The notes beneath the pieces are model-generated. The model made no database searches and was not told the DNA's origin. It saw nothing but the letters and a program-made list of their open reading frames with translations. Shown one piece after another: positions 55,905 through 64,000 of a stretch of DNA of 64,000 nt (within the stretch, counting starts at the first letter, position 1; the number at the start of each line of letters is the position of its first letter). Source of the DNA: Octopus vulgaris (taxonomy: Eukaryota). The translations under genes and the position numbers were made by a program. The DNA is taken from contig OX597820.1 in NCBI GenBank assembly GCA_951406725.2, positions 37,262,001-37,326,000 on the forward strand, written 5' to 3'.

Positions 55905-56475
55905 TATGGAAATTTTTTTTTTTGTTGAATGAATTCCGGTGACCTCCTAATATGCCACAAAACCCTTTTTTGGGTCCTAAAAACTGAGTGGGGTGGGAGC
56001 CTTGTAAATTTGGTAACTTTTGATCCTTTCACCTGCAAGATTTCCGCTAAGAAAAAAAAACTCAGATTTTTTGCGTGGAATCAAGTACCCTGACCTCCTA
56101 ATATACTGCAAAGCCCTTGTTTTTGTTCGGAAAAAAGTGGGGATTGGGAAATCAGAGCCCCCTCCCCCCATATCCCGGAATCAGTGGAAATTTTTTTTTT
56201 TCATTGAATGAATTCCGGTGACCTCCTAATATGCTACAAAACCCTTTTTTGGGGTCCGGAAAATGGGGTGGGGTAAGGTGGAAGCATCGGAAATTCCACC
56301 CCTCACCCCCATTGATCTTTTTTCTGAACCAAAATAAGGAGTTTGCAGTATACTAGGTCAGGGTACTTGATTCCAAGCCAAAAAATCCAAGTTTTTCTTT
56401 CTTAGTGAAAATTGTGCAGGTAAAAGGATCAATGGGGGTGGGGGTGAGTGAAAATTCCAAGGCTTCCACCCCATT
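55905..56475. repeat. ~296-bp family copies, tandem and then inverted
   Basis: Matches 36040-36620; orientation flips near 56320. Confidence 0.8.
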
Positions 56476-59463: not shown

Positions 59464-60643
59464 CAAGGGTTAGACAAAATAATGGAAACACATAGCATCA
59501 TAATTTTGAAATATCTATAAAAACATCAAAAGCTTGTTTATTTTTATGTTTTTTGATTTATTATTAGTGTTGCTTAATATGATTTGCTAAAATTGCTGTT
59601 TCTTTTCAGATATCATCAGAAAAAAGTAATTAAAATTCACTAAAATGACAGATCTATCTGACTTCCAAAGACGTCAAATTGTTAGTGCTCGTATGGCAGG
59701 TGCTAGCGTAACAAAAACAGCTGAAATATTTGTCTTGAAAGTAATGACAGCCTTTGAGGGGAAAAAACCTCCTCATCAAAACAAAACTTTCAGATAGAGA
59801 ATGAATTGTTAGAAAGGATCACAAAATTACTCCCCAAATTACTGCAGAGCTTAATGACCACCTTCATATTTCAAATTTTAGGCTATCAGTTTCCACAAAA
59901 ACTGCTTGCCAGATTTCACGGGAAGGCTGCAATCAGAAAACCACTATTTTCAAAAACAAACGTTGCAAAGTGTTTAGAGGGGAGTAAAAATCTACAGAAT
60001 TGGTCCCTAGAGTAGTGGAAGAATGTTATTTTCCCAGACAAGTCATCCTTTATCTTATTTCCAACCACTGGCCAAGTATACATGTGGAGACAGCCAAAAG
60101 AAGCATTTGACTCAGACTGCCTTCTTCCAACTATTAAACATGGAGGAGGATCTGTGATGACCTGGCGAGAGGGGCTATATCTTGGAAATCCCTTCATGGT
60201 AGCATTTATGGTCAAAACTATTTAAGCATTTTATCTGATCAAATTCATCCTATGGTTGCAGAACTGTTTCCAGAGGGAAATGCAATCTTTCAGGATGATA
60301 ATGCACCAATTCACACAGCTAAATTTGTTATTGAATGGCACGAGGAACATTCTAGTGAAGTTGAACATCTTATCTGGTGACCACAGTCCCCAGATCTCAA
60401 TATTATTAAACATTTATGGTGCATTTTAGAAAAACAAGTAAGCAGTTGATATCCTCTACCATCATCACTACAGGAACTGGAGACTGTTTTAGCTGAGGAA
60501 TGGACAAAAATTCCTTTGGAAACAATTCAAACTTTGTATGACTCGATACCATCGTAGAATTGAAGGTGTAATTACTGCCAAAGGCAGTCCTACTCTACAT
60601 CAGAATAAATTTGTTTGAAATTTCCATTATTTTGTCCAACCCC

Positions 60644-60645
<2 letters not shown>
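59464..60645 (+). mobile_element. near full-length degenerate Tc1-like transposon
   Basis: TIRs TA|CAAGGGTTAGACAAAATAATGGAAA and TTTCCATTATTTTGTCCAACCCCTG; transposase remnants MTDLSDFQRRQIVSARMAGASVTKTAE, FQDDNAPIHTA and PQSPDLNIIKHLW. Confidence 0.92.
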
Positions 60646-60699
<54 letters not shown>

Positions 60700-60705
<6 letters not shown>

Positions 60706-60907
60706 TTCATTGTTAAAGTTAGCTATAGTTGCTTCCCCAATATGGGGCCAATAATACTCAACCACAATACAAATAAACACACCAGAAACACCCCTGAAAG
60801 ACAATATAACCTCTTCAAATCACTGTCCTTAAACAATGACTGTCTTGAAAAAAACATATACAAGGCCAAAATCATGGGTCCCAACAGAGTAACAAAGACA
60901 TACATCG
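60700..60907 (+). mobile_element. Penelope-like element fragment (linker to GIY-YIG start)
   Basis: VKVSYSCFPNMGPIILNHN...CLEKNIYKAKI..KTYI, as in PLE (VKVSYSC.PN...II..HN; C...N.IY.A....YIG). Confidence 0.72.
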
Positions 60908-61605
60908 AGAGTTGCATTCGGTACATGTTTATTTGTTTTAGTAATTTTGACTTTGAGTCCCTCCTAGTGTGTGGCATTTATGTGTAATAATACTCTCTAT
61001 ATAATATAAATAAATATATTAAAGTGAAAAAATTGGTGGATTTTTTCTCTTATGAGGTTTTTCATGCTAACTACTTGATAAATTCTTATGAAGATTTTTA
61101 TCCTATTTTTAAATTATAAATTTAACCGGAGTATATTCAATACTGAAATTTTATTCCGAATAAGCATGTTGTTACTGAAATGCAATTTGAAAAAGCTCGC
61201 CATTTACATAGATGTATGAGGAGTGAACAGTTCTATATACTATGTTGGATACGATGGTTGTTCATCTGGTATGTTGATTTTGTTCATTCATTATAAATCT
61301 TGAATTATGCTTGCACTGATGAGTAAAGGATGCAAACCACTGCACTGATTACGAAATCACAGGTGATCTGCAGCTGAATTCTGTTTTTAAATGACTTGCT
61401 TCGAGAGTTGCATTTGGTATAATGTTTATTTATTTTAGTAGTTTTGACTTTAAGAGTCCCTCCTAGTGTGTGGCATTTATGTGTAATAATGCCCTCTATA
61501 TAAATAAATATATTTAAGTGAAAAAATTGGTGGATTTTTTTCTCTTATGAGGTTTTTCACGCTAACTACTTGATAAATTCTTATGAAGATTTTATCCTAT
61601 TTTTA

Positions 61606-61609
<4 letters not shown>
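60905..61609 (+). repeat. ~210-bp direct repeats (60905-61115, 61401-61609), period 496 bp
   Basis: TCGAGAGTTGCATT...TCCTATTTTTAAATT occurs twice with few differences. Confidence 0.92.
61302..61381 (+). ncRNA. type I hammerhead ribozyme
   Basis: Stem I TGCA/TGCA (extendable GAATT/AATTC), core CTGATGA 61316-61322, stem II GTAA/TTAC, GAAA 61353-61356, stem III (A)TCAC-AG-GTGA(T), cleavage triplet ATC ending at 61368. Confidence 0.8.
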
Positions 61610-61649
<40 letters not shown>

Positions 61650-63094
61650 TTTAGAATACACACAACATCTGTACAACTAGAGTATATATATATATATATA
61701 TAATCATATGTAGTTGTAAGCACCAAAGATCTAGGTGTAGGAAGTTAATAAGCTTTGAGTAGTCCATGGTAGGTATAAAAAAACAACTTTCAGGAACAGT
61801 AATAGTTTATTAGCACAGAAGGTTGTATATTTTTCCCATATCGAAGTTCGATAAGCTGAAAAAAGTTTTTTTTTTTATATATTCATAGTTAGCAACTAGG
61901 ATTGCTATGAATGCAAATAAAAATCCAAATTGAAGGAGTGGAGCTGGTAAAATTGAGGCTACATGTTTAATTAGCCAGCAGAACCTCAGAACTAATAATT
62001 ACTCAACGAGAGGTACTCCATTAACCACTCATCAGGCTGAAGATACCTCAGTTAAATGAAGGTTACATTGTCATTAAGTAATCTCAAGTTGTAATTTAAA
62101 ATAAGTGGTGATGCCAGAAGAACAGAGTGAAAAAATAAAATGGTCAGTAATAGAAAAGGAGGTGAAAAATACGGGAGTAGGCAATTGTCTAAAGTTTTTA
62201 AGAATAAAGAAAAAGAGAAGGGGGTTGAAGGGGGAATTTAAGTTAGATTGAAGTGAACTGAAGGGAAGGCTGTTGAGACAACTCCAGTTGTCTCAACATA
62301 AAACACTGTTTATTGTCATCCAATCAATGGACATGATTCAATCATGTGATGTCTTTCACTCCCACATTGTTTATTATTTAAACGTATGTCAATTCATCTG
62401 AGAGAATACTTTATTGACTATCAGGTGATGTTAGATATGCATCGACTCATTGTTGTGGATTTACTCTTTTTGCCTTAGCACACTTGCTGTGGTACAGATG
62501 ATTCATTTGGCATTGTGGATAATTGAAGTTACAGTTCTCCACTTTGCACTTTGGCTTGGAATTGTTTCCTTTGTTCGTTAAGAAAGTTATTATCTGAGCA
62601 CAATATCATTATTCGTCTTTACGTTATAACAGTTGTTGTGAATATTAAGCTGGAGTCATTTTACTATATCAACTATAGAACTGAAATTGTCAGGAATGAA
62701 AAGAAAAGGAAGAAGTCAAATATTTAAGAGTGAGAATAAGGTGGATTTGTTAGGAGAGAAGAGAAAAGGGGGAAGAAAGAGAGGAAGATGGGAGATAAAG
62801 TTATTAGTCATGAGAGGAACATAATTGGAGGTAAATTGGTGGCTTACTACTTAACAGTAAAACTATATATTCAAATATCCTGCATGCATGTTCTGTGAGC
62901 CTACAGTAACTTATAGGTGTGCATACACCTGCATATTCTCATGTGCAGAGAGGAAGATTAGGGAGATGACAGTTAAGAAAATATAAAGGTAGCTAAAAAA
63001 GTTGTATTATAAATACTTCAAGTTGGGGTGGGAATGCAGGAGGAATAGTTAGGGAATAATTGAGGTGGGTGCCATTAACTATACCTTAAGAATG

Positions 63095-64000
63095 TGTTAC
63101 ATAACTTGTGTTTACAATTAAGAACTAGGTTGCTCCATTCATTCAGGCTATCGCTGCATTGCATAATAGATAAGACTTCTGTGATGCAGAGATCACATTT
63201 GTTGTTATAGCTGTTATACGGTTTGGCAAGGTTAACGATGGACCATTTCATAAGCTATGAATGAGTCTAGATAAAGTCGTTTTAAGCTATAAATGAGTCT
63301 AGATAAAGTTCTTGCTTGAGATTTAAAGCTAAAATAGTGGTTACCAACTCTGACCTTGAAGGTGGTGCTGCATGTGTCAATATATACATATTTGGAATAT
63401 TCTGTTGATACCGTACATTTATATACAATATTTTTTGTGAGGCATCTAAGGGACAGGAGGTGGGGTGTTTACAGCTGCATAGGATTCTAGGTGCTAAAGT
63501 GGAGTTTGTGGGGCTATGATTATCTGTGATTAACCTGGTGTTATAAGCATTATCTTCTGTGGTCTTAGGGTTGGTATTAGGATTAGGACTGGTGGTGCAA
63601 GCAGTGGTGTTGGTAAGGAGGTTTAAGGATGTTCTAGGGTTACAGATAGGGGGCTGGGAATTAGGGTGTGTTGTATTAGTGTGATTAAAGTTAACTAATT
63701 GCTGGTTACTAAGTTTCTTATTGTTTAGATGTTGGATTATAACAGCAATGATTGTTGTGGGAGAGTAGGAAAATTTAACTGATTGGGGGGGTTGAAGATT
63801 TTTCAAAGAGAACTGGATTAGGGAAACGTTTTTCAAGTAGAGCAAAGAAAAGTTTAGGCAGTCTGGTCTGAACATTAAAGGCAAAGGGGTGTGTGGAACC
63901 AGATAACATTGTGTGTCTTGGTCCGTCTATTCTGTTTTAGGGGATTACCTGAGTATGCTTGGGGTATGGAGGTGTGCACTGGCATGGATTTCAATGGGCA
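63095..64000 (-). mobile_element. Penelope-like retroelement 3' ORF remnant (GIY-YIG endonuclease region)
   Basis: NVIWFHTP..VKFSYS..II.HLNNKKL..CSCKHPTSCPLD..KNIVYKCTV..YID..FKVRVGNH..WSIVNLAKPY..KCDLCITE..LNEWSNLVLNCKH, with frameshifts; runs off the window end. Confidence 0.85.

Follow-up and report, generated by a model that had tools for sequence, protein, structure and literature searches.

A 64,000-nucleotide stretch of the Octopus vulgaris genome (hereafter the window) probably harbors a dispersed copy of a hammerhead retrozyme of ~500 nt, which lacks an open reading frame (ORF), closes head to tail, was likely mobilized by a Penelope-like element (PLE) into a (TA)n tract, and lies beside an older scrap of Penelope sequence. 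A sequence-only reading of the window had proposed a retrozyme or pseudo-LTR (pLTR)-like unit, and that view is partly supported: the unit is multi-copy, circularly permuted, ORF-less, and hammerhead-bearing, with a Penelope-type insertion structure. Judged from its sequence, the family has the features of animal non-LTR retrozymes and appears to behave as a non-autonomous Penelope passenger. The class (animal retrozyme or non-autonomous Penelope) is already known; the family itself appears to be new and has unusually clear mechanistic footprints.

Layout of the window copy

Direct repeats of a ~210-nt segment, A, lie at 60905-~61120 and 61401-61612, with a period of 496 (Table 1). The two copies are 90.6% identical with gaps (224 columns) and differ by 8 substitutions in 198 compared columns. 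Between them are a spacer and one type I hammerhead motif, whose predicted cut falls after 61368. The whole insert, 60905-61612, represents 1.43 turns of a 496-nt non-coding unit and terminates in (TA)n. Positions in the unit are given on a ruler, q, on which q1 is 60905 and the predicted cut is q464/465. The only ORF of the unit is a 25-codon read-through into A. The earlier description of the architecture was accurate: two 210-bp repeats flanking unique sequence and one hammerhead with its cut at 61368/61369, in ~1.4 copies of 496 nt. It had also correctly placed a break in a PLE reading frame, since the frame ending in KTYI (60710-60906) stops where the first repeat begins, and a second GIY-YIG remnant 1.5 kb away, which is found on the minus strand.

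Two other features were observed in the window. Reading frames at 59640-60620 (+), immediately 5' of the (TG)n(TA)n tract, contain a decayed transposase that we take to be of the Tc1/mariner type from its DDE motifs; Pfam returned no match there. Nested inverted repeats with arms of 54, 45, and 41 nt, MITE-like in appearance, occupy ~56020-56470.

Table 1. Coordinates of the composite and its surroundings in the window.
Feature	Position	Strand	Remark
(TG)n(TA)n tract upstream of the composite	60644-60700	.	Sequence
Decayed Hydra-clade Penelope-like fragment, linker to KTYI; likely bystander	60710-60907	+	Overlaps the unit by 3 nt (60905-60907)
5' copy of repeat A (insertion end left by the second pass)	60905-61124	+	
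Unique non-coding spacer of the unit	61125-61301	+	
Type I hammerhead motif	61302-61381	+	Predicted cut after 61368
Hammerhead stem I; extension	61311-15/61369-73; 61302-06/61377-81	+	
Hammerhead core	61316-22 and 61353-56	+	
Hammerhead two-part stem II	61323-52	+	
Hammerhead palindromic stem III	61356-67	+	
3' copy of repeat A	61401-61612	+	Terminates at the family's long fixed end
Equivalent of the family's short fixed end, putative second priming site	61495-61512	+	Lies ~105 nt short of the long end
(TA)n tract at the 3' end, putative target	61611-61644	.	Sequence
Second decayed Penelope-like GIY-YIG remnant, unrelated to the unit	63105-63926	-	

A dispersed family with several subfamilies

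A query spanning spacer and ribozyme yielded 1,526 first-look candidates, 40 of which were scored and proved 89-94% identical. Exact matches in the genome numbered 343 for a 15-mer at the cut (control 2), 804 for a 23-mer (control 0), and 361 for a 26-mer (control 0). Scaled by exact-match rates of 14/38 and 23/58, these pattern counts give an estimate of ~900 ribozyme 3' halves and ~2,000 A segments, or roughly 1,000-2,000 dispersed pieces overall. Among 60 places picked by pattern only, 58 are family copies. The tandem or permuted relatives that the sequence-only reading had suggested looking for do exist, as dispersed, circularly permuted copies. Most copies are shorter than one unit. The family comprises several subfamilies with unit lengths of 482-525 nt, and the window unit differs by 4.9% from its nearest relative. 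Family members are also found in DNA contigs of four organisms. Contigs from four runs presumed to be RNA (a guessed status) cover the unit and, in some cases, the ribozyme; they carry no information on ends, strand, or circles.

The family was absent from the papers returned by literature searches on retrozymes, cephalopod hammerheads, and target-primed inverted insertions. Four family motifs had no match in the supplement of PMC8557442, where FASTA line breaks could hide one.

A second, older dispersed hammerhead family was noticed in the same genome (L112:110-390, L286-L305; 726 candidates). It shares the stem III palindrome, appears to have two 3' ends, and carries a short repeat-A-like motif at a similar distance past the cut; no link to an ORF was seen in 19 of 20 loci. 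It is possibly a sister family, or the likeness may reflect a shared recognition motif.

Head-to-tail closure of the unit

The ribozyme continues into A in all 45 mapped loci. Copies that are long enough return from the spacer into A, in divergent subfamilies as well, and no mapped copy, including long ones from several subfamilies, leads into an ORF. Only at L062, L067, L030, and L284 is the cut site passed twice, and such copies are rare. L284 is the only locus found with two whole ribozymes, 482 nt apart, and through it the family narrowly includes a head-to-tail tandem with at least two complete ribozymes. A genome-wide search for two cut-site halves at unit spacing, which misses units longer than ~510 nt and mutated sites, returned 2 matches, and a separate search of this kind gave 1. 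No long arrays were seen, although arrays of normal units would probably have shown in the pattern search, and no mapped copy exceeds ~1.6 units. Because two-ribozyme loci are scarce, sources of any circles would be rare.

The two A repeats of one insertion differ by 6.7% when pooled over 21 insertions. They are closer to each other than the between-insertion median in 17 of the 21 (one tie, three less alike) and rank first in 7. Private variants are common to both repeats of single insertions (e.g., L069, L063, and L075). This sharing indicates that both passes derive from one template lineage, which was either a circle traversed repeatedly or a run of identical units in tandem.

The hammerhead and its constraint

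A strict hammerhead descriptor matched the 64-kb window once, at the motif described here, and matched once in 30 shuffles. Rfam gave no hammerhead match in the window stretch or in four relatives. As a single strand, the window monomer has a minimum free energy fold that differs from the active fold (z -1.0). When modeled as a circle, it scores z -3.5 against shuffles, and 6 of 7 other units tried score -2.7 to -4.5; the modeled stability fits a circle without amounting to proof. Stem III has a loop of 0-3 nt yet is self-complementary, with predicted duplex energies of -4.7 to -16.0 kcal/mol in seven copies and -11.2 in the window copy. By this modeling, stem III would be too tight to close in a monomer, and lone copies would stay uncut. 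With its one ribozyme, the window copy could not release a monomer by double cleavage. Moreover, the 61368/61369 junction has the same sequence as an uncut genomic tandem, and RT-PCR across this junction would therefore not by itself prove a circle.

Constraint was assessed in an alignment of 96 copies spanning the ribozyme, four of which are second hits in one locus and a few of which may be segmental duplicates. Positions follow the established numbering of the hammerhead core. C3 and A6 are invariant (96/96), and G5 (94), G8 (91), A9 (95), the GAAA bases (90-95), and U16.1 (95) are nearly so. The units carry a hammerhead with a conserved core, which is fully intact in 78 of the 96 copies and is accompanied by covariation in stems II and III. 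Position H17 is A in 40 copies, C in 38, and U in 18, and is never G. In stem II, double changes preserve pairing (U-A to C-G in 12, G-C to A-U in 7, and A-U to G-C in 5), and a stem III pair occurs as C-G (55), U-A (19), or U.G (12); these counts are of sequences, not events. The 10.1-11.1 pair varies by subfamily, with G-C in 42 copies, G.U in 9, and U.U in 38, and U occupies 10.1 in 40 of the 96, mostly replacing the G-C pair by a U facing U, which counts against the favored reading. All four bases occur at N7 (window 61320), which shows the most change among 266 columns (22 steps against a median of 4). A nearly fixed core, a free N7, an H17 that is never G, and stem covariation together point to selection for cleavage, probably as a dimer, and the ribozyme was under such selection while the family spread.

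On the tree, change is far more frequent at N7 than at CpG sites or in the spacer, with 10 transversion steps against a median of 1. The cause may lie in a multiplicity of source templates, in a copying hot spot, or in adjustment of the cleavage rate. A ligation scar at H17, arising as a per-insertion error, was considered and rejected: the position shows 10 parsimony steps, which are largely structured by subfamily, although it ties for second place in transversions.

Insertion ends and putative priming sites

Copies have ragged 5' ends and fixed 3' ends. The latter fall at q~115 (short) or q~220 (long), with 57 long, 55 short, and 9 other ends among 121. The two sites are ~105 nt apart, insertion is mostly into (TA)n, and (TA)3 follows 16 of the 19 long ends scored. 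Both orientations occur in 57 of 118 pattern-picked loci. Outward-facing inverted pairs were found at 53 of 176 loci, five of them with a damaged end. The 48 classifiable pairs consist of 47 long/short, one short/short, and no long/long combinations (p 2e-13). In 32 of the 43 long/short pairs measured (4 of the 47 were unmeasured), the long arm runs past the short site, and in 11 it stops at or before it. Since the arms overlap on the RNA, either two RNAs were used or one was read twice, which does not fit simple twin priming. Twin priming on one RNA was accordingly rejected as a general rule, the 11 of 43 long arms that stop at or before the short site being the only ones it would suit. At many inverted insertions (L196, L198, L213, L226, L238, L246, and others), both arms end at almost identical RNA positions and are joined by a near-palindromic fold-back junction.

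PLEs are described as having an optional tail on one inverted arm (PMC3846280; PMC8557442), and in an anole PLE the tail has been traced to two internal start sites of the reverse transcriptase (RT), with both target strands cut and extended (PMC11167929). The long/short pairing corresponds to this known Penelope tail signature. The family has the fixed 3' ends with an optional tail, the 5' truncation, the inverted arms, and the microsatellite targets of a non-autonomous PLE.

Among 79 copies that reach the cut site, 67 continue upstream of it. Templates that are read through in this way were ligated or uncut. Uncut RNA is the main template of a PLE RT in vitro, as reported in the assays of PMC11167929. 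The remaining 12 copies have 5' ends at 0 to -8 of the cut, where 4.0-5.3 were expected (p 0.0009-0.009). Run-off from cleaved RNA was rejected as the source of this excess: the 0 to -8 interval was chosen post hoc, nine endpoints were hand-corrected, at most of these ends the match extends 2-4 bases upstream of the cut, and (TA)n microhomology is available at the site.

The adjoining Penelope sequence and the search for a partner

The fragment at 60710-60907 is 77-83% like a decayed Penelope family. The Hydra clade is defined by a C-terminal endonuclease with a CxCx5C linker (PMC8557442); the fragment's relatives have this linker, which is degraded in the window copy. Pfam gave no PLE family and returned no match on the window fragments. 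The sequence-only reading had regarded the fragment as fused to the unit. That it belongs to the element is not supported: the fragment's family carries a 3' repeat of its own that differs from the unit. The unit is touched by none of 29 other copies of the fragment, and Penelope protein matches occur at 6 of 162 unit loci and, judged from coordinates, abut the unit only at the window locus (1/162). Linkage to PLE ORFs, which that reading had suggested examining, was likewise lacking: the unit is present in none (0/29) of the fragment's relatives, and no unit copy runs into an ORF. The defining arrangement of an autonomous PLE, an RT and GIY-YIG ORF linked to the terminal repeat, is absent on the same counts (0/29 and 1/162). 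Divergence between the fragment and its 29 relatives is 13.7% or more (median 18%), and the relatives differ among themselves by 21%; against the 4.9% divergence of the unit, the fragment looks older than the insertion. It is likely a bystander. The remnant at 63105-63926, for which membership in the element is likewise unsupported, belongs to another Penelope family, with 35-40% protein likeness to the two others, and carries a CxCx5C-type linker. Penelope-like remnants are very common in this genome (17,568 candidates).

One contig of another organism matches 60711-60924 with 2 differences and passes the join by ~20 letters, below the 31-letter threshold, and is at most a hint to the age of the junction. 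A possible continuation of the old Penelope sequence after the 3' (TA)n (~61652-61668) scored 29, a value also reached by 2 of 300 random 45-mers and 1 of 5 other (TA)n flanks.

The search for a partner enzyme scored only the best-scoring of 17,568 and 34,838 candidates. Within that scope, no partner with a shared terminus was found in the old Hydra family, a young Hydra family, 30 tail-anchored loci, or the neighbors of the L112 family. The unit resembles neither the Hydra families compared nor the published Hydra-1_Obim hammerhead. By analogy, the partner enzyme is likely of the Hydra clade, the (TA)n habit being the one feature that favors it. The young Hydra-type Penelope family (L122-L133; e.g., G000:C4:75254440) has 95-100% protein identity and frames open to 722-803 codons, together with inverted ends, a 3' region rich in microsatellites, and a hammerhead in which 10.1 is likewise a U opposite U. 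It is a candidate source of enzyme for bench tests.

A proposed route and its alternatives

In the proposed route, a rare locus with two ribozymes would be transcribed, and the ribozymes would pair through the palindromic stem III and then cut. The monomer would then, by a slight preference, be ligated into a circle; otherwise, an uncut tandem RNA would be the template. A PLE RT/endonuclease would nick (TA)n on both strands and use the long site to prime one strand and the short site, within the RNA, to prime its counterpart. Reverse transcription would proceed back through the ribozyme, for 1.43 rounds of the unit in the window copy, which may have joined the upstream DNA at a 3-nt microhomology. 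In an extension of this route that we consider rather unlikely, two ligated circular monomers linked by stem III would load onto a dimeric Penelope enzyme, which would prime the strands of the (TA)n break at two different fixed sites with one RNA per strand. If true, it would explain the long/short rule (47/48), the overlapping arms (32/43), and the constraint on a ribozyme that is read through.

The same element might instead be copied without any circle, from uncut linear tandem RNA or by jumps between monomers, and we would put this somewhat below an even chance. A PLE RT used uncleaved RNA in the in vitro experiments of PMC11167929, the tight stem III would leave lone copies uncut, 5' ends pile up modestly at the cut (12/79 against 4.0-5.3 expected), and no copy longer than ~1.6 units was found. 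However, core constraint through several subfamilies requires a benefit from cutting, tandem sources are rare, the units fold well as circles, and related animal retrozymes make circles according to the experiments described in PMC7229834. An improbable alternative is that the copies are solo pLTR pieces of an autonomous PLE whose body was lost or escaped detection. Their ends are structured exactly like PLE ends, most are shorter than one unit, and retrozymes have been proposed to derive from pLTRs (bioRxiv 10.64898/2026.07.22.740005). The closure of the unit largely refutes this idea, because in several subfamilies the long copies lead back into A and onward to the ribozyme without ever reaching an ORF, and the scarcity of Penelope protein matches (6 of 162 loci, one directly abutting) also speaks against it. 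An ancient origin of the unit from a pLTR is likely nonetheless.

That unit and Penelope fragment form one chimera, which arose when copying switched to the partner's mRNA as template and in which the fragment names the partner, also has little probability. The two share orientation, overlap by 3 nt at the join, and have (TA)n on both outer sides, and members of the fragment's family show the Hydra linker and terminate in (TA)n or (CA)n. Against this stand the apparent age of the fragment (at least 13.7% from its relatives versus 4.9% for the unit) and a single case in 162 loci. Practically no credence can be given to the idea that a 210-bp piece was simply duplicated locally and resembles a ribozyme by chance, even in AT-rich, microsatellite-flanked DNA where Rfam finds no match. 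A single-copy unit of that kind, named by the sequence-only reading as the outcome that would undo its proposal, is refuted by hundreds of dispersed copies that share the head-to-tail join and show constraint on the core. The ORF-less, head-to-tail-closed retrozyme remains the preferred reading.

Comparison with known systems

PLEs have been named as candidate mobilizers of animal retrozymes (PMC7229834), and homology and co-occurrence of retrozymes and PLEs are reported for mostly vertebrate genomes in bioRxiv 10.64898/2026.07.22.740005. On how retrozymes are mobilized, the octopus family adds evidence from insertion structure in an ORF-less element. It also provides defined substrates for tests: two priming sites, the two-ribozyme locus L284, and natural core variants.

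Like the metazoan non-LTR retrozymes described in PMC7229834 and bioRxiv 10.64898/2026.07.22.740005, the unit is ORF-less and low in GC (30%), bears a single type I hammerhead, closes head to tail, and co-occurs with PLEs. It shares a dimer-type short stem III with the amphibian retrozymes described there. At 482-525 nt, it is longer than the 150-450 nt given in PMC7229834 and within the 51-972 nt given in bioRxiv 10.64898/2026.07.22.740005. Unlike the retrozymes described in these texts, which form dimers to long arrays, the octopus family consists almost wholly of scattered copies of less than 1.5 units. The accounts of species in the two papers, as far as available, include no cephalopod.

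The ends resemble the pLTR ends of Hydra-clade endonuclease PLEs, as presented in PMC8557442, PMC3846280, and PMC11167929. Shared features are incomplete tandems, inverted arms that are truncated 5', an optional tail confined to one end, (TA)n targets, a hammerhead upstream of the fixed ends, and ribozyme read-through. Unlike the Hydra-clade PLEs in those accounts, the unit has no ORF, its tail is ~105 nt rather than 30-40, and it shows no sequence likeness to the Hydra families compared. With the dimer-forming PLE hammerheads portrayed in PMC4209133, the ribozyme shares a palindromic stem III predicted to need a second ribozyme, a long stem II, and a short stem I. It differs from the examples given there in its two-part 10-bp stem II with an internal loop, its extended stem I, and the series from G-C to G.U to U.U at 10.1-11.1 across subfamilies.
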